A DNA stretch of 64,000 nt from an uncultured virus (IMG/VR IMGVR_UViG_3300043438_001628) (lineage: Duplodnaviria; Heunggongvirae; Uroviricota; Caudoviricetes). Location: the IMG/VR virus record IMGVR_UViG_3300043438_001628. One strand, 5' to 3'. Below, in pieces: positions 1-58,076 of this stretch. The translations under genes were made by a program, and so were the position numbers. Below the pieces are notes generated by a model, which saw only the letters and a list, made by a program, of their open reading frames with translations, searched no databases and was not told where the DNA came from. Position 1 is the stretch's first letter. The number at the start of each line of letters is the position of its first letter.

Positions 1-12
1 CCCCGCCACCTT

Positions 13-80
13 TAATGTATCGTCTAATTAGGACTCCTCCGACGCTGGAGGGAATGTAGGTGGAAATCCTACTGCATTAA
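13..80 (+). tRNA. Atypical tRNA-like gene, possibly Val(GAC)
   Basis: 7-bp acceptor taatgta/tgcatta, D arm, T arm gtagg-tggaaat-cctac (no TTC); the anticodon arm is irregular. Confidence 0.4.
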
Positions 81-88
81 CTTTTTTA

Positions 89-170
89 GGGTAGTTCGTA
101 TAGCGGCAATTACAGAAGACTGTAAATCTTCCCTCTTCGGAGTTCATTGGTTCGAGTCCAATACTGCCCA
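89..170 (+). tRNA. tRNA-Tyr(GTA)
   Basis: gaaga-ctGTAaa-tcttc, long variable arm, GGTTCGAGTCC. Confidence 0.92.
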
Positions 171-177
171 CTTTCAT

Positions 178-215
178 CCTCACTAAGCTTTAATGGTGAA
201 GCGTCTGTCTGATAT
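178..215 (+). pseudogene. 5' half of a tRNA truncated in the anticodon loop (Phe or Ile)
   Basis: D arm gctt-taatggtg-aagc, then tctgt-ctga; no 3' half; followed directly by the promoter and ORF of an endonuclease. Confidence 0.6.
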
Positions 216-226
216 TAAATACTAAT

Positions 227-847
227 ATGGAAGATCATAAAGAATGTAGTACTTGCGGCGTGCTTATATCTAAATTCGGGTATAATCGTCATATTGTTAA
301 ATGTGATGGTAATGGTCCACAGCGAGATAGAAAAAAGTCTAAAAAGAAAAGAATCGCATGGAATAAAGGATTGACCGCTGATACTGATAGTCGTGTTCAA
401 GAGAATGCAAAAAAAGTAACAGAATCTATAAGAAAATCTGTATTAGATGGGACATATAAACTAAGAAGAATGGGAACCGAAGCCCGTAAGAGATTATCAT
501 TTCAACAGTCAGAGAAAAATCGTGGAGGTAAATGTAAGTGGTTTAATGTTAATGGTATATATGTTCAAGGTAAATGGGAATATAACATAGCATTAAAACT
601 TAATGAGTTAAATGTCGAATGGCGTAGAGGTTCTCCTATTGAATATAAAATCGATGGTAAACTAAAGCATTATACTCCTGACTTCTTTCTTGTAAAAGAA
701 AATGTTTTTCTTGAAGTTAAAGGGTATTGGTGGGGTAATGATAAAGAAAAAATGGAATGTGTATATGCTCAATATCCCGATATGAAAATATTAATAATTG
801 AAAAAATACAGTATGAGAAAATTATGGACGGTGAGCTAGTCTGGTGA
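227..847 (+). CDS. PD-(D/E)xK homing-type endonuclease with NUMOD3-like motif
   Basis: AWNKGLT motif; YTPDFFL...LEVKG catalytic motif. Confidence 0.75.
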   Translation: MEDHKECSTCGVLISKFGYNRHIVKCDGNGPQRDRKKSKKKRIAWNKGLTADTDSRVQENAKKVTESIRKSVLDGTYKLRRMGTEARKRLSFQQSEKNRGGKCKWFNVNGIYVQGKWEYNIALKLNELNVEWRRGSPIEYKIDGKLKHYTPDFFLVKENVFLEVKGYWWGNDKEKMECVYAQYPDMKILIIEKIQYEKIMDGELVW

Positions 848-904
848 CATCAGCGCTTGGTTGAAGCCCAAGAGAAGCAGGTTCGATTCCTGCACCGTCC
901 ACCA
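826..904 (+). tRNA. tRNA-Phe(GAA)
   Basis: cttgg-ttGAAgc-ccaag, T arm, encoded CCA; overlaps the last codons of the endonuclease. Confidence 0.88.
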
Positions 905-913
905 GTTTCAAAC

Positions 914-991
914 GGGCCGTACCCTTGTGGGCATCCAAATCAGTGAAATGTGGAGGTTAGGTAATAAGTTGGACGATACCAACACGGCACA
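914..991 (+). ncRNA. Degenerate tRNA-like element
   Basis: Closing stem gccgt/acggc with a T-arm-like hairpin gttgg/ccaac. Confidence 0.3.
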
Positions 992-1002
992 CTATTTCAA
1001 AA

Positions 1003-1076
1003 GCAGCCGTAGCTCAGCTGGATAGAGCACTCGCCTTCTAAGCGAATGGTCACTGGTTCAAATCCAGTCGGTTGTA
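1003..1076 (+). tRNA. tRNA-Arg(TCT)
   Basis: tcgc-ctTCTaa-gcga cloverleaf. Confidence 0.92.
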
Positions 1077-1084
1077 CTTTTTAA

Positions 1085-1153
1085 TGCTCGCTGGAATCCT
1101 GCATGTCGCGATCAGGATAACCTGTGCTGTGTGAACCAGACGGTGAGCAACCA
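1085..1153 (+). ncRNA. Small RNA with acceptor stem and ACCA end but a non-tRNA core
   Basis: tgctcgc/gtgagca plus ACCA; internal ctgg/ccag and atcctg/caggat helices. Confidence 0.5.
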
Positions 1154-1158
1154 ATTTC

Positions 1159-1229
1159 GCGGGATTAGTTTAATGGTAAAATAATAGCCTTCCAAGCTGA
1201 AGTCGAGAGTTCGATTCTCTCATCCCGTA
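1159..1229 (+). tRNA. tRNA-Gly(TCC)
   Basis: tagc-ctTCCaa-gctg, T arm gagag-ttcgatt-ctctc. Confidence 0.9.
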
Positions 1230-1234
1230 TTTTT

Positions 1235-1393
1235 TTACCACGCCACATATGGCAACGAAATCATATGTGAGCGATTGAGTTGAGTTTGCACTAGCCATGT
1301 GAGCAAAATAACTCAACGTATTCCGACGCACGATAGTAAAATTAGGTGGCTCTAGATAATATCTGTCCTCTGTGATTCTCGGTAGTGTGGTAA
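1235..1393 (+). ncRNA. Structured ncRNA of about 160 nt
   Basis: 9-bp closing stem ttaccacgc/gtgtggtaa; hairpins cacatatg/catatgtg and gttgagtt/aactcaac. Confidence 0.55.
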
Positions 1394-1402
1394 AGCTTTC
1401 AT

Positions 1403-1479
1403 CTGGTATTAGCGAAGCTTGGTATCGCGCCTGATTTGGATTCAGGAGATCGTAGGTTCAAATCCTACATACCAGACCA
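1403..1479 (+). tRNA. tRNA-Pro(TGG)
   Basis: cctga-ttTGGat-tcagg, CCA end. Confidence 0.92.
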
Positions 1480-1482
1480 ATT

Positions 1483-1584
1483 AAACATGTAGTTCAGTAG
1501 TAGATCACATCTTCTCTATGATGGTAAGCTACGCCGCAAAAGAGAGAAGCTCTGAGGACGCAGGTGCAATTCCTGCCATGTTTA
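1483..1584 (+). ncRNA. tRNA-like RNA with expanded anticodon domain
   Basis: Acceptor aaacatg/catgttt, D-like arm, T arm gcagg-tgcaatt-cctgc; central domain of about 50 nt with a cttctct/agagaag stem. Confidence 0.6.
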
Positions 1585-1597
1585 AGATTATTTTAAT

Positions 1598-1686
1598 GGG
1601 TGTGTGGCTGAGTCTGGCTTAAGGCGCTCGCCTTGAAAGCGAGAGAGGTCTGAAAGCCTCCGTGGGTTCGAATCCTACCGCACCCG
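1598..1686 (+). tRNA. tRNA-Ser(TGA)
   Basis: ctcgc-ctTGAaa-gcgag, long variable arm, G73. Confidence 0.92.
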
Positions 1687-1695
1687 CTTTTTAAT

Positions 1696-1766
1696 TGGCA
1701 TATAGCGTAATGGTAGCGCAACTGACTTTGACTCAGTGTGTGGGGGTTCGACTCCCTCTATGCCTG
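1696..1766 (+). tRNA. tRNA-Gln(TTG)
   Basis: actga-ctTTGac-tcagt. Confidence 0.9.
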
Positions 1767-1880
1767 CTTTTTATAGTGTAATGGCAGCACACCTCGATAG
1801 GGTTGTTGAGGTTCGATTCCTCCTTGAATATGGTAACGTAAATCCGCACGGGGAGGAACGGTTCGATTCCGGTGTTTTTC
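1767..1880 (+). pseudogene. tRNA fragments (a D arm and two T arms, no anticodon arm)
   Basis: tagtgtaatggcagcac; gaggttcgattcctc; cggttcgattccg. Confidence 0.45.
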
Positions 1881-2109
1881 CAATGTGTTGGCCATGATGA
1901 TGTAATTTACGAGGCCGTAAGAATAGATGACTGCGAGTGCGACTGACGGAGTAAGTCTTTTTAGACCGAAACAAAACAATATCTCGACAAGACCGGATAC
2001 TTGAACAAATTTCTGCTATTCAAACTTCATCGTTTAAACACATTGGTTTTGCTCGTAGGCGGTTCTATGGTAATTCATTGCTGCCTACGGGTTCTAAAAT
2101 TTCAACTTT

Positions 2110-2202
2110 TTCTACCTGATAAGAGCCTATAAGGAACGGTGATATAATGATCGTAGTGCTTCGGCCAGATTGTTTGAATCGGGCGAATCCTGCACGGTAG
2201 AA
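2110..2202 (+). ncRNA. Structured small RNA
   Basis: 7-bp closing stem ttctacc/ggtagaa with internal helices, T-rich flanks. Confidence 0.4.
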
Positions 2203-2222
2203 TGTTTTAATAAATAAAATTA

Positions 2223-2765
2223 ATGAAAAATGAAAACGCCATAATATGGGAACAGTTCTTATCCGAATCTCCTTGGGTAACACAACAAGTCCCCGATCAA
2301 TTCAATATCGATATGTCAAATATCAGTATAGAAAAGATAAAAGCTAACCCAAAAATTGGAAGTTATAAAGATTTCGAAATATACCAAAGTGTGAATGAGT
2401 ATGAAACAAGTCTATATTTTCTTAAAGATGATATATTCACTGCTTTTTATAAATACATAAAAACAGAACTTGGCAACATTCAAACAAAATTGATCTGGAA
2501 TGATCAAAAATACAAAGGATCGTTTTTGGATATTTTTGCGAATTATATAATTCCAAGATTTAAAATTATTGAGAGTGATGATATGATGACACCTCAAGCT
2601 TTTGATATGTGGAAATCTTTAATGCTGTTGAAACCGGAATATAAATTTTATGTTAAACGAGAAGATAAAATCCTAAAATTAGAATCGCCGTATGACATTC
2701 ATTTATATAAAGAACGCATGGGAGTAGACGATAAAGAGAACTCAACATTTGTGGTTCAAGAATAA
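2223..2765 (+). CDS. Hypothetical protein, possibly GNAT-like; resembles 36256..36843
   Basis: 180-aa ORF, TAAATA upstream, SDxxxT...W motif. Confidence 0.55.
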   Translation: MKNENAIIWEQFLSESPWVTQQVPDQFNIDMSNISIEKIKANPKIGSYKDFEIYQSVNEYETSLYFLKDDIFTAFYKYIKTELGNIQTKLIWNDQKYKGSFLDIFANYIIPRFKIIESDDMMTPQAFDMWKSLMLLKPEYKFYVKREDKILKLESPYDIHLYKERMGVDDKENSTFVVQE

Positions 2766-2768
2766 CAC

Positions 2769-2841
2769 GGGAGTATAATTCAATTGGTAGAATACCTCAC
2801 TTTTAATGAGTAAGTTTCGGGTTCAAGTCCCGATGCTCCCA
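2769..2841 (+). tRNA. tRNA-Lys(TTT)
   Basis: ctca-ctTTTaa-tgag, GGTTCAAGTCC. Confidence 0.92.
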
Positions 2842-2874
2842 CTTTTTTTAATTTCTTGCAGAAGAGAGGAAAAA

Positions 2875-3054
2875 AGTAGCTGATTCAGCTACTGGCGGTT
2901 CCTCAGAAGAAGTCGTGTTCTTCTTAGTGTAAATGTCAAGCCACGAACCAAGCACGCTGCTATATATTTTATAAATGTTTGTTGAGTCGCGCTCAACTGA
3001 TCTGGAATAAGCAGGAGGAGGTCTAGAAAGAACGATGATAAACCCTGCACAAAT
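2875..3054 (+). ncRNA. Two adjacent structured elements
   Basis: Hairpins agtagctga/tcagctact and agaagaa/ttcttct; three-way junction tttgt/acaaa, gttgag/ctcaac, gcagg/cctgc. Confidence 0.35.
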
Positions 3055-3097
3055 TTAGTTGACTTCTTCGAAAGAGAGGTTAAAATATTAACATAAA

Positions 3098-3172
3098 TCC
3101 CAAGTAGCTCAATGGTAGAGCGGTGCGCTGTTAACGCATAGGTTGTAGGTTCGAGCCCTACCTTGGGAGCCA
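3098..3172 (+). tRNA. tRNA-Asn(GTT)
   Basis: gtgcg-ctGTTaa-cgcat, GCCA end. Confidence 0.93.
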
Positions 3173-3202
3173 AATTCAAAGGAACCTTAATATAATTACA
3201 GT

Positions 3203-3517
3203 ATGAGCGGAGGACATTTTGATTATAAACAATACGACATTTTCGAAATCGCTAGAGAGATTGAACGTCTCATTAAATTCAATGATTCTGATCAGGTTAA
3301 CGAATATGGTGACAGAATCGGTAGAGACTTCAGCGGTGAAACAATCACAAAATTCAAGACCGCCGTTGACATCCTAAGTCAAGCTGCTATCATGGCACAA
3401 AGAATCGATTGGTTGGTTAGCGGCGACGATGGAGAAGAAACGTTTCATCAACGCTGGGATGAAGATCTAACAAATTTACTTGATTTGCTTGGAGAGGGTC
3501 TGGAAGAGCATGCATAA
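3203..3517 (+). CDS. Phage hypothetical protein (MSGGHFDY N-terminus)
   Basis: 104-aa ORF preceded by GGAACCTTAA-TATAAT-N6-ATG. Confidence 0.7.
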   Translation: MSGGHFDYKQYDIFEIAREIERLIKFNDSDQVNEYGDRIGRDFSGETITKFKTAVDILSQAAIMAQRIDWLVSGDDGEETFHQRWDEDLTNLLDLLGEGLEEHA

Positions 3518-3570
3518 TGAGGGGCAGTACCTCAAGACTCTACAAAAACTCCAAGCACCAATTTAAAAAA

Positions 3571-3795
3571 AGCCAAGCTGACTGGTCATCGGCTAGTGTG
3601 TTCGCGAAAGACACTTGATGGTAAGGCACCATTGAGTCCACATGAAGGGAAGCCAGTAATACTGGTAAAAATCGCAAGTCTAGCTCAAGGTGACTCTTGG
3701 GAAGGATGCCTCGGCTGCGTGAAGCTTGTTATGTAACTGTTGGCTGGAGCGAAAGCTTTGAAGGTTGACCACTTTCTTCGGAAGGGTTACAATCA
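3571..3795 (+). ncRNA. Multi-stem, probably double-pseudoknotted ncRNA of about 225 nt
   Basis: agccaa/ttggct closing stem, five or more hairpins, loop-distal pairings tggtca/tgacca and aggca/tgcct. Confidence 0.6.
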
Positions 3796-3821
3796 CGAAA
3801 TTTTAAAACAATATACATATT

Positions 3822-4370
3822 ATGGAAATACCCAAAGAATTACTCGAATCATTATTAGCTGATAATTTATCAACATATAAAATTGCCGATAAATTGGGTA
3901 TATCGCAAACTAATGTCAGATATTGGCTTATGAAACATGGGATTGTCAAAACCCCCCCTCCAAAAAGGCCAATACGACACTGTGAGTTTTGTAATAAAAT
4001 AATGTGTACTAATTCAAATGTAAAAAGATATTGCAATAATTTATGTCATAAAAACTATCAAAATGCACAATCGATAAAAGAATGGCAATCTGGTGGCATT
4101 GATTATGTTGGATATAATGGTAAAAACATGTTAATTAAACCATTTATTAAAAATTATCTGTTGGAAAAACATGATCACAAATGCCAAAAATGTGGGTGGG
4201 GAGAAATGCATGAAATAACAAAAAAAGTCCCTCTTCAAATTCATCACATAGACGGTAATCCAACAAATTGCACAGAACTTAATCTACAAGTATTATGTCC
4301 AAATTGTCATACATTAACTCACAATTATGGTAATTTAAATCGAGTTTCTCCTAGAGTTAGAAAAGATTGA
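3822..4370 (+). CDS. HNH homing endonuclease with N-terminal HTH
   Basis: CQKCG...LQIHHIDGNPTN...NLQVLCPNCH. Confidence 0.9.
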   Translation: MEIPKELLESLLADNLSTYKIADKLGISQTNVRYWLMKHGIVKTPPPKRPIRHCEFCNKIMCTNSNVKRYCNNLCHKNYQNAQSIKEWQSGGIDYVGYNGKNMLIKPFIKNYLLEKHDHKCQKCGWGEMHEITKKVPLQIHHIDGNPTNCTELNLQVLCPNCHTLTHNYGNLNRVSPRVRKD

Positions 4371-4373
4371 AAT

Positions 4374-4471
4374 TTTATAGGTCTGGGCAGCCAGATGATA
4401 TTGAGCACTCGGCTTCGATTACCGTAACCTCAATACACGAAGAGACGAATTGATCAGCGTTCGCCTATAAA
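4374..4471 (+). ncRNA. Structured small RNA
   Basis: Closing stem tttataggt/gcctataaa; hairpins ctgg/ccag, tattgag/ctcaata, cgaa/ttcg. Confidence 0.45.
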
Positions 4472-4478
4472 CTTTTCC

Positions 4479-4550
4479 GCCGGATTAGCACAGTGGTAGT
4501 GCAATCGCCTTGTAAGCGATAGGTCGTCGGTTCAAATCCGACATCCGGCT
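4479..4550 (+). tRNA. tRNA-Thr(TGT)
   Basis: atcgc-ctTGTaa-gcgat. Confidence 0.93.
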
Positions 4551-4556
4551 CTTAAT

Positions 4557-4630
4557 GGATGCGTAGCTCAGCTGGTTAGAGCACAGCTTTGATAAAGCTG
4601 GGGTCGTTGGTTCGAGTCCAACCGTGTCTA
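4557..4630 (+). tRNA. tRNA-Ile(GAT)
   Basis: cagct-ttGATaa-agctg. Confidence 0.92.
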
Positions 4631-4638
4631 CTTTTTTT

Positions 4639-4711
<73 letters not shown>

Positions 4712-4719
4712 CTTTTATC

Positions 4720-4791
4720 GGCGTGGTGGGAGAGTGGTTATTCAGCAGATTGCAAATCTGCCTTATGTCAGTTCGATTCTGACTCACGCCT
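4720..4791 (+). tRNA. tRNA-Cys(GCA)
   Basis: gcaga-ttGCAaa-tctgc, U73. Confidence 0.88.
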
Positions 4792-4794
4792 CTT

Positions 4795-5001
4795 ATGTTT
4801 AAAACAAAATACAGAATCAGGGAATACGTTAAAGCTAATGGCAGCTCATCGTATTTTATTCAAAGAAAGTTTTTACTCTTCTTTTGGGAAGACCTCGATT
4901 ATTGGGCCAATCCATACCCGTACAGTTCATTGATCGAAGCAAGGAACGAGATCGATAGGTTGCACAGTAATGAAATCGTAAGGTCTAAAATCCATTATTA
5001 A
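4795..5001 (+). CDS. Hypothetical protein
   Basis: 68-aa ORF filling the gap between two tRNAs. Confidence 0.6.
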   Translation: MFKTKYRIREYVKANGSSSYFIQRKFLLFFWEDLDYWANPYPYSSLIEARNEIDRLHSNEIVRSKIHY

Positions 5002-5007
5002 CCTAAC

Positions 5008-5079
5008 GCGGGATTGGCGCAGTGGTAGCGCAGCTCCTTTACACGGAGAAGGTCGTAGGTTCGAATCCTACATCCCGTA
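5008..5079 (+). tRNA. tRNA-Val(TAC)
   Basis: ctcc-ttTACac-ggag. Confidence 0.92.
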
Positions 5080-5086
5080 TTTTTAT

Positions 5087-5926
5087 ATGAAAACAGTATT
5101 AGTGACAGGATCACATGGATTTGTCGGTACTCAGTTAGTTACTCAATTATTGAACGGTGGACAATACCGTGTTATCGCAGTTGATGATTCAATTATCTTG
5201 GGTTATTCCGAGTATAACAACCTGATTATCTGCAATACATCTTATGATAATATTGCAAATTTTCAGAATGTTGATGCTGTTGTTCACTTAGCGAATTATA
5301 AATATAATGATAATTCCAATCGATTGGCGTTTGACATCGCAGCGCTTCCGAAGTTCCTAAACAAATTTCAACCTCATGTGAAATTTGTATACGCATCATC
5401 AGCTGCTGTGTATGATGAAAACTATGATGTGAATCCATCCACAATGTATGGATTGTCCAAGTTGACACAGGAAAATATTTTACTCGGAAGTGACTTTAAT
5501 AATTTATCAATCTTGAGATTTTTTAATATATACGGTAAATCATCAAACGGTGGCGTGATACAAAATTTCAAAAATGCTATCGTAAACAATGAGCCTATCT
5601 ACATCAATGGTGATGGTAACTCCACGAGAGATTATATACATGTTTCCGATATTGTTAATTCGATTATCAAAGAAATTGAATGTGAAAGCACTGGCAAGAT
5701 CATCAAAAATATAGGCACTGGAATAGGCACAAGTTTAAATAATCTGGCTTCTATTATGTTTGATGTGTTTGGAAAATCCACAACAGTGATACACAATCAA
5801 AATGCAGATTGTGGTATACAGTTTTCAATAGCTCCAAATCATTTGTATAATTGCTTGGATCTGAAAACGGGATTGAGAGAATTCCAGATTGACAATTCCA
5901 GAAACGGTGATAAGATACTTGCATGA
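5087..5926 (+). CDS. NAD-dependent epimerase/dehydratase (extended SDR)
   Basis: VTGSHGFVG, ASSAAVY, YGLSK, LRFFNIYG, GDGNSTRDYIHV. Confidence 0.9.
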   Translation: MKTVLVTGSHGFVGTQLVTQLLNGGQYRVIAVDDSIILGYSEYNNLIICNTSYDNIANFQNVDAVVHLANYKYNDNSNRLAFDIAALPKFLNKFQPHVKFVYASSAAVYDENYDVNPSTMYGLSKLTQENILLGSDFNNLSILRFFNIYGKSSNGGVIQNFKNAIVNNEPIYINGDGNSTRDYIHVSDIVNSIIKEIECESTGKIIKNIGTGIGTSLNNLASIMFDVFGKSTTVIHNQNADCGIQFSIAPNHLYNCLDLKTGLREFQIDNSRNGDKILA

Positions 5927-6249
5927 CGTTGAACGAATACCAACAGATGGCAGTTGAAACCGCAGTTTATGGCGATGGGGATAAGATCATTTACCCAACA
6001 CTGGGACTGTGTGGAGAGGCTGGTGAAGTTTCAGATAAGGTTAAAAAAATTATACGAGACAAAAATGGAATCTTTGATGAAGAATCAAAGCTGGCTATTG
6101 CCAAAGAGATCGGTGATGTAATTTGGTATTGTGCTGCTTTGGCTAGAGATTTAGACTCTTCTCTCGAAGAGATTTGCACGATCAATATCGAGAAGCTAAA
6201 ATCCCGACAACAGAGAGGTGTGATAGCTGGATCAGGAGACGATAGATAA
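5923..6249 (+). CDS. mazG: MazG-like nucleotide pyrophosphohydrolase
   Basis: LGLCGEAGEV..KVKK...EIGDVIWY. Confidence 0.88.
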   Translation: MTLNEYQQMAVETAVYGDGDKIIYPTLGLCGEAGEVSDKVKKIIRDKNGIFDEESKLAIAKEIGDVIWYCAALARDLDSSLEEICTINIEKLKSRQQRGVIAGSGDDR

Positions 6250-6255
6250 ATTTAT

Positions 6256-6337
6256 GCCCATGTGGTGAAACTGGTATCCACAACGAACTTAAAATTCGTC
6301 GCCGTTAGGCTTGTCGGTTCGAGTCCGACCATGGGTA
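6256..6337 (+). tRNA. tRNA-Leu(TAA)
   Basis: acgaa-ctTAAaa-ttcgt, long variable arm. Confidence 0.9.
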
Positions 6338-6347
6338 CTTTAATTTT

Positions 6348-6467
6348 ATGAAGAAACAGCAACGAGACGTTAAGAGGGTAAAGCGTAAAGGTATTCACGC
6401 TAAGAGCAAGACATCAAAGCTAAAGAATTCCAAGAATTACAAGAAGCTATATAGAGGTCAAGGTTAA
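6348..6467 (+). CDS. 39-aa highly basic peptide (below the ORF-track cutoff)
   Basis: MKKQQRDVKRVKRKGIHAKSKTSKLKNSKNYKKLYRGQG; the stop overlaps the next ATG (TAATG). Confidence 0.65.
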   Translation: MKKQQRDVKRVKRKGIHAKSKTSKLKNSKNYKKLYRGQG

Positions 6468-6736
6468 TGAAAATTAAATGTACACAGCACATAGAAGCTG
6501 AAATTACATGGCATGATCGACTTGAAATAACAGAAAAAACACTGCGCAGGATTCTCGATTGGCCTGATCATACCTATGTTTCTCAGGATGGTAGACTTAT
6601 AACAGATGTTATATACTCTACATCCCATGCTTGGACTGATAAAGTAGAGCTTCGTAAGGAAGCTACTGAAGATGATAAAGCCTTACAAAGGATTGTTAAT
6701 CTTATTCGTGCCAGTAAATATAAATACAAAGATTGA
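6467..6736 (+). CDS. Hypothetical protein
   Basis: 89-aa ORF coupled to the upstream gene. Confidence 0.6.
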   Translation: MKIKCTQHIEAEITWHDRLEITEKTLRRILDWPDHTYVSQDGRLITDVIYSTSHAWTDKVELRKEATEDDKALQRIVNLIRASKYKYKD

Positions 6737-6744
6737 GTTGAAAT

Positions 6745-6817
6745 GTGGACTATGGTGTAACGGTTAGCATTGGAGATTGTGATTCTCCCGGAGAGGGTTC
6801 GAGTCCCTCTAGTCCAA
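6745..6817 (+). tRNA. tRNA-His(GTG)
   Basis: ggaga-ttGTGat-tctcc, G-1 present. Confidence 0.88.
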
Positions 6818-6823
6818 TTTTAT

Positions 6824-6910
6824 GGAAGGTTGCCAGAGCGGTTTATTGGGACACTTTGCTAAAGTGTTGGAGTTTAAAAGCTTCCGTGGGTTCGAATCCC
6901 ACACCTTCCT
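6824..6910 (+). tRNA. tRNA-Ser(GCT)
   Basis: acact-ttGCTaa-agtgt, long variable arm. Confidence 0.88.
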
Positions 6911-8308
6911 TTATCTTGATATTTCTTCCCAATCTACTGAGCCGTGAACTAATTCACCAGAGCCACCAGCTGTACTTGCTGTCACAGATATAGTTAATTC
7001 ATATCTGTCACCAGTGAAACTGTTTCGTTCTAATTGAAACTTGAACAATGCTTCCTTTAGAATATCAATAGTTGTAGATGCTTGTGTATTTGAAGTGAAA
7101 TACCCACTCGCTAATATTCTACCACCGCTAATGCCAGTACCATTTAATTTATATTCTACAGCAGAATCAGCACCAGCACTTAACCAATTACCTCCTGATG
7201 TAGTCCCACCAGCAACAGCTTCCCATTTATAAACACCTGTACCTACCCCCATTAAAGAGATAGCTGTTAAAATAACAATAGCATCAGGTTTGTCAGCTCT
7301 CAATCTAATTGAAGCTACAGGATAAAATGTACCAGCAACAGGTAACAATTTTGGAGCTAGTATCGATGTACCAACTGCTTGTTGTAATCCTCTAAGTTCA
7401 TATCCACCCTCAGATATAACTGTTGAACAAACTTGCTTCATTTGACTTGGACTGCCTGTAGCTCCTATGTTTTCTATTTCATATCTAAGAGGTAACGATG
7501 CAGTAGTAATATAAGTTGTAGCAATTATATTAGCATGGTGGAAAAAGTGACAAGGTACAAATTGACCATTTATTACAAATCCAGTTCTAACTGTACCTAA
7601 TCCTAACCACTCAATATCCATAAAGAATATTTGTGCTTTTGTTTTGTCTAAGATTATACCAGAAGGTCCAGTTCCATCTAATTTATCAACATTCCAATCA
7701 GACTGTGCTGTTCTAGTTGATATCACTGATCCAGTTACTATGCTTCGCTCTACCATGTAGAGAGTGCTTCCATCTAGCTCTAGATAGATACCATTATCAT
7801 TTCCAAAGTATCCAACACGCTGTCTTAGATTTGTCTTAGGTTCATTGAATGTGAATGTATTTAAAACTTGAAGACTCTTACCAGGTTGATAAGAGAATAC
7901 CTTTGTTGTTTCTCTATAAACTCTTGAACCACTCAATCCATCAACATTTAAATTTACTAAACCTTGATTTGGACTAAAGACAGCAGATGCAGTTCCACTT
8001 GTTAATGTAGACCACAGACTGTTATCTTTATAACGATGAGAAGAATCGAACAATGTAAGAGGTGCAGACATTCGAGTGCGTCCAAATGCATCAGATGTCA
8101 TGTTCAAATTGCCAGTATAATTATCTGCTGTAGTATCAATGTTCTTAACAAGAACGGCGTATTTGGGATACTGTAATGTTCGAACAGCTCCATAAGTTGG
8201 ATCTGTTGTCGCTGAAGTTGGAGGGAAGCGAGTATCATTTACAATCTCTACAAATTTACCACTCTCCGTATTAGCTGCGTTTGTCCAAACTCTAGTGTCT
8301 ATAGGCAT
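6911..8308 (-). CDS. Probable virion-associated beta-rich protein
   Basis: 465 aa, Thr/Gly/Ser rich, TTAAATA promoter; function inferred only. Confidence 0.55.
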   Translation of the reverse strand: MPIDTRVWTNAANTESGKFVEIVNDTRFPPTSATTDPTYGAVRTLQYPKYAVLVKNIDTTADNYTGNLNMTSDAFGRTRMSAPLTLFDSSHRYKDNSLWSTLTSGTASAVFSPNQGLVNLNVDGLSGSRVYRETTKVFSYQPGKSLQVLNTFTFNEPKTNLRQRVGYFGNDNGIYLELDGSTLYMVERSIVTGSVISTRTAQSDWNVDKLDGTGPSGIILDKTKAQIFFMDIEWLGLGTVRTGFVINGQFVPCHFFHHANIIATTYITTASLPLRYEIENIGATGSPSQMKQVCSTVISEGGYELRGLQQAVGTSILAPKLLPVAGTFYPVASIRLRADKPDAIVILTAISLMGVGTGVYKWEAVAGGTTSGGNWLSAGADSAVEYKLNGTGISGGRILASGYFTSNTQASTTIDILKEALFKFQLERNSFTGDRYELTISVTASTAGGSGELVHGSVDWEEISR

Positions 8309-22442: not shown

Positions 22443-22740
22443 CGACGCCAGCTTACCTTAACGTTTTATTAATAGAAGAGGGTAACGTTTTATTAATACG
22501 AATCCAGCCACAAGCCGTTTGTGGACCCACAACTCGTTTAATAATATTATTATAAAAATAATACCAAGGCGAAAATATAGGAAGCTCGATGATATATATA
22601 CCATCGAGCTTCCGTTGTGTATGGATTATCTATCGGCTGAACTCGTGTGCGAGTGCATCAATAGCTTCATCGGGACCGTCAACAGGGATTGTGATTTGCA
22701 TCATGGGTAGTATACTCTAACGTTTTATTACTGGAAAAGA

Positions 22741-22815
22741 TGGTGGGATCATCGGGACTTGAACCCGAAACTTACAGATTAAAAGTCTGCCATTCTACCA
22801 TTGAATTATGATCCC
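22741..22815 (-). tRNA. tRNA-Lys(TTT), second copy
   Basis: gcaga-ctTTTaa-tctgt, CCA end. Confidence 0.93.
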
Positions 22816-22831
22816 TTTTTATTAAGAAAAT

Positions 22832-22906
22832 TGGCAGGTCGTAGAGGAATCGAACCTCTATTGATTGCTTAGAAGGCAACAGTCCTATCCTTTAGACGAA
22901 CGACCC
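22832..22906 (-). tRNA. tRNA-Arg(TCT), second copy
   Basis: ttgc-ctTCTaa-gcaa, GCCA end. Confidence 0.9.
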
Positions 22907-23045
22907 ATTGATGAATTATCTATATATAGCCACAATAGCCGCTATGTGTTTTATAGGATTTATTATAACTTGTCAGAACGATAAGTTTGTGGTCTCAACA
23001 AAGAAATAATAATCTCCCGAACTCGGCGATTTAAAGATATCAAGC

Positions 23046-23071
23046 AGGCAGTTTATTGAGATGCCCAGCTC
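23046..23071 (-). ncRNA. Repeated 3'-UTR pseudoknot motif GAGCTGGGCATCTCAATAAACTGCCY (copy 1 of 6)
   Basis: Other copies at 25907-25932, 26680-26706, 27271-27297, 31813-31838, 48038-48063. Confidence 0.7.
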
Positions 23072-23077
23072 ACACCA

Positions 23078-23260
23078 CTAACCGATAAGTTTATTAATAG
23101 CTTGGAGACAAGCTTCGCGGGTATTCTTCCCGGTGATTTTCTTAGCAGCTTGAAAGACTTGATTGCGCGAGCTGCGCATCCCGGTTTCGATCTCAAGCTT
23201 GAGACCACGGGCGATAACTTTCAGGCGGTAGGTTTCGATGTCAGCAGGATCGGTGAGCAT
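23078..23260 (-). CDS. Hypothetical protein
   Basis: 60 aa; box promoter upstream, pseudoknot downstream. Confidence 0.7.
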   Translation of the reverse strand: MLTDPADIETYRLKVIARGLKLEIETGMRSSRNQVFQAAKKITGKNTREACLQAINKLIG

Positions 23261-23293
23261 GGCAACAGTTTACTCTAACGTTTTATTGATAAA

Positions 23294-39479: not shown

Positions 39480-39502
39480 TTGATTGTTTGTTGAATTAAA
39501 AG

Positions 39503-39593
39503 TACGGCAGGTGGGACTCGAACCCACAAAGAAGCTATCAACTCCATACCCGATTATGAGTCGGGGCCATTCACCAATTCTGGTCACTGCCGC
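39503..39593 (-). tRNA. tRNA(CAT) with long variable arm, Ile2 or Met, copy 1
   Basis: cccga-ctCATaa-tcggg; acceptor GCGGCAG/CTGCCGT. Confidence 0.85.
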
Positions 39594-40336: not shown

Positions 40337-40338
40337 AG

Positions 40339-40429
40339 TAGGAGAAGTGGGACTCGAACCCACAAAGAAGCTATCAACTCCATACCCGATTATGAGTCGG
40401 GGCCATTCACCAATTCTGGTCATTCTCCC
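40339..40429 (-). tRNA. tRNA(CAT) with long variable arm, Ile2 or Met, copy 2
   Basis: Same 76-nt core as copy 1; acceptor GGGAGAA/TTCTCCT. Confidence 0.85.
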
Positions 40430-42750: not shown

Positions 42751-43389
42751 TTACTTTAACGTTTTATTATAGAATTTCTTATATACAATCTTTTCGAGTC
42801 CGAAATTATCAAGCATGGGGAGAATTTGATTACGAATGTGATTGCGCCTAAACCGGTTATCAGCATTTGATGGGTCTTCCACAACATATTTCATCAACCC
42901 ATTGTGCTCAGCATATCGCTGAATGTTAATCTTGGGTGTGGTTAAAAATGGCCGGATCATTTTGAAAGGAACTCCATCCAACGGTGTGATCTCTTGAATT
43001 GGTTTATACTCAGGGCAACCTTTCAGGGCATTCATCAAGTAGGACTCTACTGCATCATTCAAGTGATGGCAGAGGACAATATCACTCTGCAATGTTTTAA
43101 ATGCACCTAAACGAAAATCACGAAGTCGTGCTTCAACATTACTCGTAATCAAATCCTCTCCGTGTCTGATAATTTTAACGAGAGGAATATTGTGATCTTC
43201 ACAGAAAGCTGTTACAGATTCCATCATGTCTTTATTAATGGGTTGATACCCATGATTGACATGACATGCTGATACCTTGTTCTTATAGATTCTGTGAAGT
43301 AAGTGGAGGCATGCGATAGAATCAACGCCTCCACTTACTCCAACACAAAACCCATCAACAGGAATCAGTGAAGATTCAATATTGATCAT
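42751..43389 (-). CDS. tilS: tRNA(Ile)-lysidine synthetase, catalytic domain only
   Basis: VSGGVDS, HVNHG, HHLND..E, IRPFL, EDPSN, RNHIR. Confidence 0.9.
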   Translation of the reverse strand: MINIESSLIPVDGFCVGVSGGVDSIACLHLLHRIYKNKVSACHVNHGYQPINKDMMESVTAFCEDHNIPLVKIIRHGEDLITSNVEARLRDFRLGAFKTLQSDIVLCHHLNDAVESYLMNALKGCPEYKPIQEITPLDGVPFKMIRPFLTTPKINIQRYAEHNGLMKYVVEDPSNADNRFRRNHIRNQILPMLDNFGLEKIVYKKFYNKTLK

Positions 43390-48551: not shown

Positions 48552-49250
48552 TCAGTGGTGATCGAATTTCGAGGTTTGTTTCGCTGCCAGAATTCGCACA
48601 ACATCTTCAATATCGAAAAATGCAGTTCCATTGAATGCTTTAGCGTTTTCAACACCACAGTCTAAAATTTTCCCAAATTGATCTTGATCTGGATTGATCT
48701 GTTTAAGATTTCCGTGGCTGTGTCCACAAACGCAAACACGACCATTATTTTGATCATGGAAAATCAAGGGACTCATATGAGTGCAGAAGAATCTATCTCT
48801 ATCGATATCAAGAAGAAAACTCTCACCCATCATAGTGACACGATCCGCAATATTCAATGGATAGATTTCTTCAACACCTCTGGGAAGAGCTTGCATCAAT
48901 TTCAAGTTATAGATACTATCTCTGTAAGCTTGATACACTCCTGAATTGTGATTTCCCCACACCATCAAAGTTTCACAAGGAATACGATTCAAGAAATCGA
49001 TAATAGCACTAGATCCAATACTAAGTCCGACATCACCCAAGCAGATCAATAGATCATCTTCATGTAGAGTTGCGATTTGTGAATCGATCCAATCGTTGTG
49101 TTCTTGAGCGGATTGGAATCCTCGGACACCGTAAAGGAATTCCTTATTATGTCCATAATGGAAATCGCTGGAAAACTTGATCTGTCTGTAATTATTGCGA
49201 CTCTTTTTTACTTTTAACATGCTGTTTAATCTTTTTAATGATATCATCAA
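48552..49250 (-). CDS. Calcineurin-like metallophosphoesterase
   Basis: SDFH, LGD, GNH, GHSH; start uncertain. Confidence 0.85.
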   Translation of the reverse strand: MMISLKRLNSMLKVKKSRNNYRQIKFSSDFHYGHNKEFLYGVRGFQSAQEHNDWIDSQIATLHEDDLLICLGDVGLSIGSSAIIDFLNRIPCETLMVWGNHNSGVYQAYRDSIYNLKLMQALPRGVEEIYPLNIADRVTMMGESFLLDIDRDRFFCTHMSPLIFHDQNNGRVCVCGHSHGNLKQINPDQDQFGKILDCGVENAKAFNGTAFFDIEDVVRILAAKQTSKFDHH

Positions 49251-49455: not shown

Positions 49456-50544
49456 TTAAAGTAGAGTTTGAAGCTCTTGGTGAATCGCGTCTGACTCCAT
49501 CTTAGCAGGGATTTCCCGCTTGTCAAGCATTAAAAATGCAAATGATTTGCGCCAGTCATCGTAGCGTGCGGTAATGACAAGAGCTTGCTCCTTGCGAGAA
49601 TCACAGAAAGAAAGATCATTCACAACATCAGTCAATCGTTCAAGTTTATCCTTATAGCTGCAATAAGCCTTCACCACAACAGCGATATCATCCTTGATCT
49701 TTTCAGCAATTTCATAGTCAAGAGCTGTTTCCACATAATTGTAGAATCCTTCGTAAGAAGTGAATCGAGGAGAAGCAATGAATACATCCATCACTTGTTT
49801 AACAGTTTTAATTCCAGTAGCGATCTTGTGTAGTTCACAATACTCTGATGCCTTGATCTTCTTGAGAGTTTGACCATCAGGAGAATACAGCACAACACCT
49901 TCTTTACCACGCCAAGCATCGACATCAAGAATACACTCTTCTACAGAGTTGTATTCATACTTTCGAGGACGGGGAATTTCTAAGTAGTCAGCATAATAAT
50001 CAACGAACTTTTGAGAAAGATAGTGACCAGTTTCATTATTTACAATCCCCAAAAATGTTAGTGTTGGTTCGTTGTGTTCACGAAGGACGATTACATTTGA
50101 TGGAGTAGTCCATTCAAAGAGGTAAGAGAGTTCACTGGTCTCTCTGTTCGTATCAAATAAACGAAAAATGAAGTATTTTTTGATTAGAAGATCAATCTCA
50201 TCTCCATTGGCCATGCTACGAGCATCAACAGTACCACGGGTACGAATAATCAATTCACCCTTGTACTTACTAACAATCAAGAGTGATCCGTCCAGCTTAT
50301 GTCGTGCTTCAAACTTCCAAGAGGAATCCCATGGTTGAAAATCGGGACGCTCGCCGAAGTTGGTGAACTTACCAAATCCTTGTGAGATTACAAAGTTATC
50401 ACTCTTTCGTAGGAGAGTACTACGAAAGCGAGCATTATCATCATCCCACTTAACACTCATGTCTTTTGGAGTGATGAGGATACATTCATCACCACAAACA
50501 ACACAATCTTTATAGTTGAAGTCGTCGTGATCTGGCAGTTTCAT
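49456..50544 (-). CDS. RNA ligase, Rnl1-like
   Basis: KFTNFGE, KLDGSL, TRG, FE, EGVV, KIK. Confidence 0.85.
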   Translation of the reverse strand: MKLPDHDDFNYKDCVVCGDECILITPKDMSVKWDDDNARFRSTLLRKSDNFVISQGFGKFTNFGERPDFQPWDSSWKFEARHKLDGSLLIVSKYKGELIIRTRGTVDARSMANGDEIDLLIKKYFIFRLFDTNRETSELSYLFEWTTPSNVIVLREHNEPTLTFLGIVNNETGHYLSQKFVDYYADYLEIPRPRKYEYNSVEECILDVDAWRGKEGVVLYSPDGQTLKKIKASEYCELHKIATGIKTVKQVMDVFIASPRFTSYEGFYNYVETALDYEIAEKIKDDIAVVVKAYCSYKDKLERLTDVVNDLSFCDSRKEQALVITARYDDWRKSFAFLMLDKREIPAKMESDAIHQELQTLL

Positions 50545-55899: not shown

Positions 55900-57015
55900 T
55901 CACATCGCCTTGAAGCTGTGTCCAAGAGTTGCGACATTTGCAACTCCATCGTTTACCATAACTTGCTCGACAGAATATGATTGGAATTCTTCGGTGTTAT
56001 CATATCCAATGATACTAAATCCATTCTGCCAATTTGGGGATGATGCATATATAGGATTTAGATCACAAGCACATGCATTTTCCCATGCGAAAATTTGCTT
56101 ATCTTTACGACCAGCGATGCCGGGAATTCTCTGAGCAGTTGAACCAAATCTATGTGTGTGGTTATGCATAAGTGATATATTAAACTTATCCAACATACCA
56201 CGCGCAGAATATCCACCGTTTTTGCGAACTACATCACCGTGAAGAATGATAAAGTCATCGGTGATACTGGCATAATCAACCAATTGGATATCCGATGCAT
56301 ATTCTCCCAAGAACACCTTCTCATAAGAAAGTACATCTCTAATCTCAGGAAGAGATGCTAGTTCACTGATGCGCTCAGATAGATATCTCCACCAACGACC
56401 AGTCACATCATTACCACTGTGGTTAGCATTTACTTCTAGAATTTCAGCATCCGCTGATGCTACACTGAAAAGGTCATCTAAAAAGGAATGATAAGCAATG
56501 CGTTCATCCAATAGAGAATACCCGCTTCTAATATCCTTTGGGTATCTAGATACCGCCAACATGTCAATGGTATCACCATTTAAAATGATCTTTGAAGGTG
56601 AAAGCTCATCAACGACGCCGAGGAAAATATCCAGCGTTTTTTGACAATGCTTTGGGAAATGCATATCCCCGATAACCAAAGCGAAATCGGTGGTCGGCTT
56701 AGATGATGCGGATCTCTTACGCTCTGCTGTTTTAATTGGAGCCAGAGTTGATAGAAAGTTTAAAACTTCGTCGGATGACTTGTCAAATTTAACTGGCTTT
56801 TCACGCTGCAAGTTCTCATTTACAAATCCCGAGCCTTTGACTTCTTTAGATTTAGTCCAATCATATACAGTGGTTCGAGGAATACCGTATACTCTTGAAA
56901 TTTCTCTCAATGACATACCATTGTCTCGGGCGTTTTTTACTTGTTGTTTTATATCCATAAATTTAGCATTCTGTGCGATTAAAAAATTAACCCAGATAGA
57001 AGAAAAGTCAATCAC
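55900..57015 (-). CDS. HTH plus metallophosphoesterase
   Basis: GIPRTTVYDW; GDMH, NGD, NH, HG, HTH; real start probably MDIKQQ. Confidence 0.82.
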   Translation of the reverse strand: MIDFSSIWVNFLIAQNAKFMDIKQQVKNARDNGMSLREISRVYGIPRTTVYDWTKSKEVKGSGFVNENLQREKPVKFDKSSDEVLNFLSTLAPIKTAERKRSASSKPTTDFALVIGDMHFPKHCQKTLDIFLGVVDELSPSKIILNGDTIDMLAVSRYPKDIRSGYSLLDERIAYHSFLDDLFSVASADAEILEVNANHSGNDVTGRWWRYLSERISELASLPEIRDVLSYEKVFLGEYASDIQLVDYASITDDFIILHGDVVRKNGGYSARGMLDKFNISLMHNHTHRFGSTAQRIPGIAGRKDKQIFAWENACACDLNPIYASSPNWQNGFSIIGYDNTEEFQSYSVEQVMVNDGVANVATLGHSFKAM

Positions 57016-58076
57016 TTTCGAGCGTCGTAATGTTTGTTGATGATTTTGAATGATCCTGCTGGGAATTCCTTTTCTACTTCCCCGCTGAATCCTTCATTTT
57101 CGATCTTAATCTTCTTCACATATCCACCGTGATTAATTACAACGCCTTCAAATGGTAAGCTGTCAATCTTCGAAATTCCAGAAGAATATTTCTGAATTAG
57201 CTCAGGAGTAAGAACAACATCATGTTCCACGATAGGGACATGTGGTAGTAGCATTTCTCGTGCTACATCATAGAAATAGAATCGATCTCTCTTTCGAGCA
57301 TATCGTCGTTCACTGATGAGATAAACACTAAAGATTGCAAGACCAGCAGGTTTAGAGCTGTGAGGATTATGCTCACCACGCTGGATACCATTACCATAGG
57401 ATTCACCACGAATGCAAAGTGAGACATTGTGCTTCTTACAATATTCTTTAAGCTTTTCTTCGATACCGTAACGCTCAATTTGAGCAGTATAGTTGTTAGT
57501 GCAATCAAGCTTGTATTCCATGGTCCGACCAAGAACACCAAATTCATCGGTGTCAACCTTATAATAAGCGCTCCAGCTTTGACCATCAAGCTTTAGAGTA
57601 ACATCTACAACTTCTCCATATGGAAGTTCGTCTTCCATGTTCTCCCATCGCTCCTCATCAGTCTTAGGAATACCGAAAGGAAGAAGACCTTTAGCACTAA
57701 GATCCTGTGGCACAGGAGGCTCATAATGCTTGATGCCAAGAAGTTCAGAAACATCCAAGCCAATGTTATTGCCATTGATGATACTGGTATCAATAACGCC
57801 TTCTAGAAGATCAGAACGAACAATGATTCCTTCACTCCAACGCCCACGGAGCTTTACTGCCTTGATACGCTTTGGACTATACTTACGATAGTCTTCAGCC
57901 CACGGTTCTTCTGGAAGGATACTGTCAGGTTGAATGTAAACAACGATGTCTCCTTCTTTGTAAAGACCGCGCTGAGTGACACACTGATAACCTAGAACAG
58001 TGATTAAATCCAGACGATCTGCTTCTGGATGGAAGCAGGCACTTTTAATCTTTTCAATTGTAGCAATTTTGTTCAT
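57012..58076 (-). CDS. RNA ligase, DRB0094 family
   Basis: HPEADRL, IPKTDEER, KLDG, GE.YG, EGVV, SFKII. Confidence 0.88.
   Translation of the reverse strand: MNKIATIEKIKSACFHPEADRLDLITVLGYQCVTQRGLYKEGDIVVYIQPDSILPEEPWAEDYRKYSPKRIKAVKLRGRWSEGIIVRSDLLEGVIDTSIINGNNIGLDVSELLGIKHYEPPVPQDLSAKGLLPFGIPKTDEERWENMEDELPYGEVVDVTLKLDGQSWSAYYKVDTDEFGVLGRTMEYKLDCTNNYTAQIERYGIEEKLKEYCKKHNVSLCIRGESYGNGIQRGEHNPHSSKPAGLAIFSVYLISERRYARKRDRFYFYDVAREMLLPHVPIVEHDVVLTPELIQKYSSGISKIDSLPFEGVVINHGGYVKKIKIENEGFSGEVEKEFPAGSFKIINKHYDARK

Follow-up and report, generated by a model that had tools for sequence, protein, structure and literature searches.

A phage tRNA operon assembled from swappable cassettes, with candidate conserved RNA genes between the tRNAs

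Arrays of transfer RNA (tRNA) genes in phages are mainly taken either to aid codon usage or to replace tRNAs that host defences have destroyed. The tRNA cluster of T4 also holds two RNA genes of another kind, rnaC (species 1; 139 nucleotides, nt) and rnaD (species 2; 119 nt), which lie head-to-tail with the tRNA genes on one strand and beside tRNA-Arg, and the homing endonuclease gene segB sits inside the same cluster. To our knowledge, these two array-embedded RNAs have gone unexplained for some fifty years. They are given as late RNAs in the account of PMC9697503, and PMC3014915 refers to their function as still unknown. Here we describe positions 914 to 4471 of a 64,000-nt stretch of DNA (IMG/VR record IMGVR_UViG_3300043438_001628, an uncultured virus of the Caudoviricetes; the whole stretch is called the window below), in which tRNA genes are interleaved with twelve elements, e1 to e12. 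The array is like the T4 cluster both in the arrangement of its RNA genes and in its embedded endonuclease open reading frames (ORFs).

This part of the window forms the core of a phage tRNA operon put together from independently swappable cassettes, namely tRNA genes, small ORFs (homing endonucleases among them), and RNA genes. Comparison with relatives points to at least eight conserved non-tRNA RNA genes (e1, e2, e3, e4, e7, e10, e11, and e12, perhaps joined by e6). The modules are discrete and conserved, their base pairing is strand specific, and they behave as cassettes. We put at about 0.6 the probability that they are transcribed within tRNA precursors, freed by the enzymes that mature tRNAs, and accumulate as rnaC and rnaD do, a reading drawn from the anatomy of the array. 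A preliminary description, made by a model from the letters alone, had proposed that the operon releases a library of small RNAs by way of host tRNA processing, possibly decoys for anticodon nucleases or other RNA-sensing defences. The features of the array are as follows (loci in relatives are denoted by L numbers).

914-995, + strand: e1, an RNA of about 80 nt
1085-1157, + strand: e2, an anticodon-less mimic of a tRNA end
1233-1397, + strand: e3, a multi-helix RNA of about 165 nt
1483-1584, + strand: e4, a tRNA look-alike
1768-1883, + strand: e5, remnants of tRNA genes
1884-2106, + strand: e6, made up of e6a (1884-2035, a conserved module) and e6b (2036-2106, a terminator-like hairpin)
2110-2205, + strand: e7, about 95 nt, ultra-conserved
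2875-2966, + strand: e8, a hairpin-rich stretch
2981-3054, + strand: e9, a portable module bearing an AGGAG run plus a short ORF
3059-3083, + strand: small hairpin behind e9 (z = -2.2), present in L135
3487-3560, + strand: e10, placed at 3495 in the preliminary description, with an acceptor-like stem and N-CCA
3571-3800, + strand: e11, a multi-hairpin RNA of about 230 nt
4380-4470, + strand: e12, an RNA of about 90 nt
1003-4551, plus Phe at 826-904, + strand: nine canonical tRNA genes (Arg, Gly, Pro, Ser, Gln, Lys, Asn, Thr, and Phe; ARAGORN and RF00005)
227-847, + strand: endonuclease ORF (Pfam Phage_endo_I, 2.3e-8; phrog_945), the end of which overlaps tRNA-Phe
2223-2765, + strand: ORF of 180 amino acids (aa), an insertion missing from L208, with no Pfam or PHROG match
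3203-3517, + strand: ORF of 104 aa, matching phrog_6724 over residues 1-83 only
3822-4370, + strand: HNH homing-endonuclease-like ORF (phrog_1271, 6.9e-15; weak Pfam HNH)

ARAGORN called 17 + strand tRNA genes between 89 and 6910 (window 1-7000), and Rfam added one match to its tRNA model beyond these, at 1483-1584, which is e4. All twelve elements lie in the gaps between the tRNAs and four ORFs, and their boundaries were set from alignments to relatives. The G+C content of the elements was 0.40 to 0.52, compared to 0.27 to 0.40 for the ORF segments tested and 0.386 for the whole window. The preliminary description had stated that most elements are closed by terminal stems of 5 to 9 base pairs (bp) and that several have T-rich spacers like those of the real tRNAs. 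Closing stems were predicted in 7 of the 12 (e1, e2, e3, e4, e7, e10, and e12), with lengths of 5 to 11 bp, and T-rich trailers were common to tRNAs and elements alike. CCA is encoded by just three of the 17 array tRNAs (Phe, Pro, and Asn) and is therefore no default of the operon. The final ~10 codons of the ORF at 3203-3517, together with its stop, are supplied by e10 (3487-3517), and the endonuclease ORF at 227-847 has no match in L208.

Relatives were drawn from IMG/VR; metagenome contigs added little. A metagenome scan with an e2 pattern gave 14 matches, 2 of them genuine, and the MazG gene used as an anchor gave 7 loci only. Close arrays were those of L208/L307, L209, L305, L310, L318, L325, L326/L328, and L331, and more distant ones those of L010/L210, L003/L213, L211, L212, and L014. 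L302, a candidate relative of e2, was discarded as a chance match within an ORF. Other contigs contain homologues of ten of the twelve elements, and the similarity stops at the element ends, which bears out the earlier claim of discrete elements among the tRNAs; e5 and e8 had no homologue among the relative loci collected. Across the colinear block 1078-1693, aligned with four relatives, identity was 95-96% for e2, 91-95% for e4, 69-87% for e3, and 62-97% for four tRNAs (two tRNAs at the ends of the alignment, with unreliable identity figures, were left out). On these figures e2 and e4 are conserved at least as well as the tRNAs of the block.

Base-pair covariation was counted on the alignments as pairs altered on both sides, with folds derived from the same alignments and with shuffle controls that ignore relatedness and can overstate support. 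Changes on both sides were found in 13 of 55 pairs of e3 (shuffles, 2.9 ± 1.5, 0/500; slid controls, 0 to 2; 6 sequences), in 9 of 20 pairs of e10 (shuffles, 2.1 ± 1.1, 0/500; 8 sequences), and in 6 of 15 pairs of e9 (11/500 shuffles for the count and 0/500 for the covariation score). Counts without a shuffle control were 5/18 for e1 (window, L305, L318, and L010), 5/20 for e2 (7 sequences), and a weak 5/69 for e11 (5 sequences). These compensatory changes support the predicted folds of e1, e2, e3, e9, and e10 and weakly support that of e11. Covariation among phage homologues had been named as the check on the proposed structured RNAs, and both conservation and, for e3, e10, and e9, covariation beyond the shuffles were found. 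Invariant G-U pairs and changes from G-C to G-U in e3 and e7 indicate that the + strand is the folded strand. A peptide-coding reading of e3 and e11 was rejected on account of insertions and deletions of 1, 2, and 4 nt (in e11, of 1 and 2 nt).

At the gathering score, Rfam 15 gave tRNA matches only, in the window and in L209, and e4 was the sole element matched, as a tRNA. In a cmscan of positions 1-7500 at E <= 10, the Rfam tRNA model had no match to e1, e2, e3, or e6 to e12. The designation of the elements as non-tRNA thus stood for most of them, but e4 passes the tRNA threshold (39.5 bits) and e5 contains two orphan T-arm motifs. T4 rnaC and rnaD, taken as a control, are without an Rfam family as well, and therefore the silence of Rfam shows only that the elements are uncatalogued. 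A Y RNA-like (YrlA) match at 940-1059 was rejected, with 22 bits against a threshold of 69.

Contigs of four other runs join exactly across single modules: 2209 to 2769 (across the ORF at 2223), 3171 to 3486 (the ORF at 3203), 3805 to 4377 (the HNH gene), 1743 to 1877 (e5, between T arms), 2842/2843 to 2967 (e8, in two runs), and 2960 to 3095 (e9). The operon is therefore built of swappable cassettes. Module order and combination also differ among relatives: L326 is without e3, tRNA-Lys, and e9; L208 is without e1, e5, e6, e8, and e11; and in L010, e10 directly follows e1. In contigs of three runs, 283 to 290 extra letters stand between e5 and e6 (window 1871-1881), which would be a further cassette missing from the window.

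Three of the elements mimic parts of tRNA. The first, e2, has an acceptor-like closing stem of 9 bp, a hairpin whose 11-nt loop is conserved as far as the distant L003, and, adjoining the 3' strand of the closing stem, a 3-bp hairpin in which the 7-nt loop is conserved. As we read it, closing stem and 3-bp hairpin would stack over 12 bp, much as acceptor and T arm do in a tRNA minihelix. ACCA ends the element in 7/7 sequences, that of L003 included, and matches to the e2 covariance model (R2) are restricted to these phages. In e10, an acceptor-like closing stem of 8 bp encloses a 7-bp stem plus hairpin and is followed by N-CCA. CCA is present in 7 of the 8 sequences (all 7 of the close ones); it is preceded by A, G, or U, and the bases that follow vary. 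The distant L010 copy was found by the covariance model (R1) only (41 bits, E 5e-7) and holds the fold via many compensatory changes. The internal loop of e10 (window 3509-3516) contains, as does the same loop in L200 and L010, a hexamer that changes with lineage but is self-complementary each time (GCAUGC, AUGCAU, and GCGCGC), which hints at dimerisation through a loop-loop (kissing) contact.

The third mimic, e4, scores 39.5 bits against RF00005 (threshold, 29) and aligns to the whole model; its L209 homologue scores 43.3 bits. The acceptor, D, and T arms are all kept, whereas the 13 model positions of the anticodon arm are taken up by 43 nt. This insert is almost invariant across six sequences and, as we read it, may fold into a 7-bp stem with a large loop that holds an inner hairpin. 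By the criterion of a 5-bp stem and a 7-nt loop, e4 has no anticodon arm, and a call by ARAGORN required a lowered threshold and a 26-nt "intron." Since 43 nt replace the anticodon-arm positions, e4 is a tRNA-derived RNA unable to decode.

One rival explanation is that the elements are decaying tRNA genes, pseudogenes left by array turnover. In e4, relatives have a canonical T loop and keep the D-loop GG, and the window copy deviates in both loops, as decay would predict; however, conservation within e4 is highest in the insert. In e5, T-loop motifs at 1810 and 1860 stand without acceptor partners, at a site where contigs recombine between T-arm motifs; the element is missing from L208 and L209, and its only Rfam match is to tRNA-Sec (18.3 bits, E 8.7). 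We take e5 to be tRNA debris rather than a conserved RNA. For the array as a whole, decay is extremely improbable: e4 is the only element to score as well as E = 1 with the tRNA model of Rfam, conservation is equal to or above that of the aligned-block tRNAs, and the compensatory changes preserve folds that are not those of tRNA.

The mimicry also bears on a narrowed form of the decoy proposal, in which e2, e10, and e4 would act as sinks for tRNA-attacking host enzymes, whether nucleases or transferases. No hairpin read by eye resembles a 7-nt anticodon loop, and e4 is without one, which speaks against decoys for anticodon nucleases in particular; phage tRNAs that resist such nucleases are among the cases documented in PMC11455837. 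The targets of e2 and e10 would instead be enzymes directed at the CCA tail and the acceptor stem, given the acceptor-like helix and conserved N-CCA of both and the minihelix-like stack that we read in e2. Effectors of that kind have been described: Cas12a3 cleaves CCA tails and accepts minimal substrates consisting of an acceptor stem plus CCA, as set out in PMC12851939, where its authors also state that viral tRNAs cannot easily evade a defence directed at the CCA tail, and MenT toxins are described in the literature as acting on tRNA acceptor ends. Two RNA-ligase-family proteins and a TilS-like PP-loop protein are encoded in the same window, so the lineage appears to invest in tRNA repair and modification. 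Weighing on the other side are the L010 copy of e10, which is without CCA, and e1, e3, e7, e11, and e12, which have no evident tRNA mimicry. Overall we consider the narrowed decoy explanation distinctly unlikely. Its specific version, that e2 and e10 are minihelix decoys, made in bulk by the operon and having no anticodon but a true N-CCA end, that vie with tRNAs for immune effectors cutting or extending CCA (Cas12a3-type, HEPN, or MenT-type), is more doubtful still; e4 would then serve likewise for effectors that read the tRNA body.

The remaining modules differ in kind. A 5-bp closing stem and three hairpins were predicted for e1, which has 80% identity to L010 over 101 nt; e3 is closed by an 11-bp stem. 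A four-way junction was predicted for e7 (a closed junction with three hairpins and a 7-bp closing stem). Among seven distinct e7 sequences, 26 of 31 predicted pairs were invariant, 5 were altered on one side, and none on both; identity was 93-99% where its neighbours had 70-97%. The prediction for e12 is a closing stem plus three hairpins, with 27 of 29 pairs invariant and 2 altered on one side (4 sequences). GNRA and UUCG loops occur in e11, which has 93-96% identity to L209 and L326. The e6a module, also present in L209, has 87.5% identity to L010 over 136 nt, and the fold that alifold gives for it is not reliable, since 16 of the 46 pairs contain non-pairing cells. The e6b hairpin, common to the window and L209 and not found in L010, has a minimum free energy of -23.6, compared to -11.2 in shuffles (z = -5.0), and is followed by a T-rich run, so that it looks terminator-like; a simple terminator scan did not list it, and the + strand sites which that scan gave within 914-4471 were tRNA T arms. 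The e8 stretch is rich in hairpins (z = -2.4). The proposed RNA library is not uniform: most elements appear to be conserved folded modules, but e5 is debris, e9 is leader-like, e6b is terminator-like, and e8 is without a relative among the loci collected.

The e9 module was followed beyond the close arrays. A first pattern was too loose (119 stretches, mostly chance), and a tighter one still gave 42 chance matches among 113; the final set held 25 distinct sequences in 31 distinct contexts. Of the 31 contexts, 10 have an ARAGORN-called tRNA no more than 400 nt away, and in 3 more what looks by eye like a tRNA start stands behind e9; in the remaining 18, e9 is flanked by two small ORFs, which in L002 are themselves located between the DNA polymerase gene and a RecA/UvsX-like gene. 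It directly abuts tRNA-Lys in L190 and L259. In its P1 hairpin, 5 of 6 pairs covary, and in P2, 1 of 4, while a possible pseudoknot, P3, is invariant; paired cells amounted to 99.2%, versus 90.3% in shuffles. The invariant 3' half carries an AGGAG run (Shine-Dalgarno-like) and, 13 to 16 nt further on, an ATG that opens an ORF of 7 to 9 codons. This ATG was present in 27 of 28 contexts, in five of them by direct reading because the script had chosen an earlier ATG. In 12 of the 28, an ORF of 63 to 83 aa starts at the stop of the short ORF, the stop either lying 2 nt before the start (8 contexts) or overlapping it (4 contexts). In L135 and L259, an ORF of 108 to 120 aa begins 34 nt after the short ORF. 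The window copy has only the small hairpin and tRNA-Asn behind it and no ORF. Since small ORFs follow e9 elsewhere, it is most likely a portable 5' leader of messenger RNA (mRNA) with an upstream ORF, orphaned in the window. The short ORF may code for a peptide, and e9 may also act as a free small RNA. A search of 185,579 bacterial genomes with the e9 pattern gave 3 matches, all without the rest of the motif, and therefore no host counterpart. In many copies a TATAAAT-like run stands a few bases before P1 (window 2966-2980), a run missing from L190 and L259, which we take to resemble the late promoter motif of T4-type phages.

Features of this sort could mean that the elements are cis-acting furniture of the operon, such as processing guides, folding insulators, stabilisers of mRNA 5' or 3' ends, promoters, and terminators. 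The AGGAG run, short ORF, coupling to small ORFs, and upstream TATAAAT-like run of e9 all fit this explanation, as do the terminator-like e6b, the extended -10-like motif of e7, and the stop codon that e10 supplies to the ORF at 3203-3517. Nevertheless, the multi-helix folds and invariant loops of e2, e3, e10, and e11 exceed what a spacer or terminator needs, the modules move as independent cassettes between different neighbours, and e2 and e4 match or exceed the aligned-block tRNAs in conservation. A purely cis-acting role for the array's elements is thus unlikely.

The preferred reading remains that the modules would be transcribed with the tRNAs, from the same strand, in polycistronic precursors. 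We infer cotranscription and release because of the shared strand, the T-rich trailers, the terminal helices, the N-CCA of two elements, and the abutment of some on tRNAs. RNase P would make the cut 5' of each tRNA or acceptor-like stem, while the U-rich trailers would be the site of action of RNase Z, RNase E, or exonucleases; the outcome would be stable small RNAs that accumulate, as rnaC and rnaD do. As mimics of parts of tRNA, e2, e4, and e10 would be expected to associate with proteins that recognise the body of a tRNA or its 3' (CCA) end. Several observations weigh against this reading. Most of the double changes in each element come from one or two divergent relatives, on folds taken from the same alignments, and e4, e7, and e12 are almost without informative variation, so their folds are predictions. 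Single-sequence folding energies separate neither the elements nor real tRNAs from ORF controls (z of -0.7 to -2.7 for most elements and +0.19 for e1; -0.8 to -3.3 for four real tRNAs; +0.8 to -2.7 for ORFs). The L010 copy of e10 reads UGCA where the others have CCA, and e9 is found mostly outside tRNA arrays. The sequence of e7 carries TGATATAAT, a perfect extended -10 motif, and its conservation could partly reflect a signal at the DNA level. Finally, no RNA run is among the sequencing runs listed for the window DNA.

The window comes from a large uncultured freshwater phage related to the T4-like cyanomyoviruses. Its virion protein gene at 6911-8308 (- strand) has 65-67% identity to Synechococcus phages S-RIM50, S-WAM2, and S-RIM8, and near-identical DNA is confined to lake/freshwater metagenome runs (~20 DNA runs carry parts of the array). 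Pfam and PHROG matches show that the window codes for rIIA, NAMPT, ThyX, MazG, and a nucleotide-sugar epimerase; UvdE and C5 DNA methylase genes are also present. Window positions 800-5100 had no near match among GenBank phages, and in a distant search of GenBank phages, tRNA parts alone were matched (best 30 of 1606 records). Searched singly, e9, e11, e3, and e6+e7 had no match in 50,697 GenBank phage records. No paralogue of any element was found elsewhere in the 64-kilobase window.

Further tRNA-related genes lie outside the array. RNA-ligase-family genes are found at 49456-50544 (- strand; PF09511, T4 Rnl1-type) and 57012-58076 (- strand; PF09414 with an OB fold), and a metallophosphatase-like ORF at 48552-49250; the three could be a tRNA-repair set. 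Two unusually long tRNA genes of 92 nt with anticodon CAT stand ~750 nt apart on the - strand (39502-39593 and 40338-40429), near the TilS-like PP-loop protein gene (42751-43389), and tRNA-Met and tRNA-Ile(tat) genes of 93 to 94 nt occur in relatives too. Second copies of tRNA-Lys(ttt) and tRNA-Arg(tct) are located at 22741-22906 (- strand), opposite to and far from the main array, in an 851-nt ORF-free gap (22443-23293; G+C, 0.41). A LAGLIDADG-like ORF at 61718-62527 (+ strand) represents the third homing-endonuclease-like gene family of the window. At the left end, L209 593-713 is 100% identical to window 1-121 up to 121/122, in the anticodon of tRNA-Tyr (89-171); ~790 nt of unrelated sequence follow in L209, where ARAGORN calls no tRNA-Tyr. 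This break is either a recombination breakpoint or the interruption of a tRNA gene in its anticodon loop. Elsewhere in L209, positions 3924-3995, which immediately follow its e11 homologue, match the Rfam tRNA model (42.5 bits) and were not called by ARAGORN.

If the RNA genes are as proposed, this part of the array has as many non-tRNA RNAs as tRNAs, and their conservation equals or exceeds that of the tRNAs compared. Several modules would copy nothing of tRNA but the parts by which processing enzymes and certain immune effectors recognise it. They thus offer short, concrete RNAs for asking what tRNA-processing enzymes need in a substrate, and they bear on whether phages make RNA decoys against tRNA-directed immunity and on what the species 1 and 2 RNAs of T4 might do. 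In form, e2 and e10 are what one would expect of a competitive substrate for CCA-tail effectors.

Known systems offer several points of comparison. Among non-decoding RNAs derived from tRNA, transfer-messenger RNA (tmRNA) is found inside the arrays of related phages (ARAGORN; L208 7489-7865 and L014 11626-12019); neither ARAGORN nor Rfam at gathering score gave a tmRNA in the window, where e4 reached 16 bits against the tmRNA_permuted threshold of 47. With tRNA and its minihelices, e4 shares a fit to the whole RF00005 model, and e2 and e10 share acceptor-like stems and N-CCA, although the latter two are without a D or anticodon arm. An IMG/VR survey is described as yielding 10,006 candidate structured RNAs (csRNAs), tRNA-like and gene-upstream ones included (PMC10690425); it used the data source in which the present modules recur. 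The non-coding RNAs listed in the cyanophage S-CREM1 paper are all Rfam-known (PMC9964418).

The closest likeness is to T4. A search of window 1-7000 with rnaC and rnaD by nhmmer gave 0 matches at E <= 10, but the elements are of the same kind, being candidate non-tRNA RNA genes co-oriented with and adjacent to tRNA genes. The T-arm-like hairpin of rnaC has its parallel in e4 and e5, and the annotated end of rnaD, which runs into ACCA, has its parallel in e2 and e10. Unlike T4, which has two such RNAs, the window has about ten modules of different families, which are interleaved with the tRNAs rather than placed at one end and are shuffled between relatives. The array thus appears to be an enlarged form, built from cassettes, of what is known from T4, with RNA families that are in no catalogue searched (Rfam 15 and, for four stretches, the GenBank phages).

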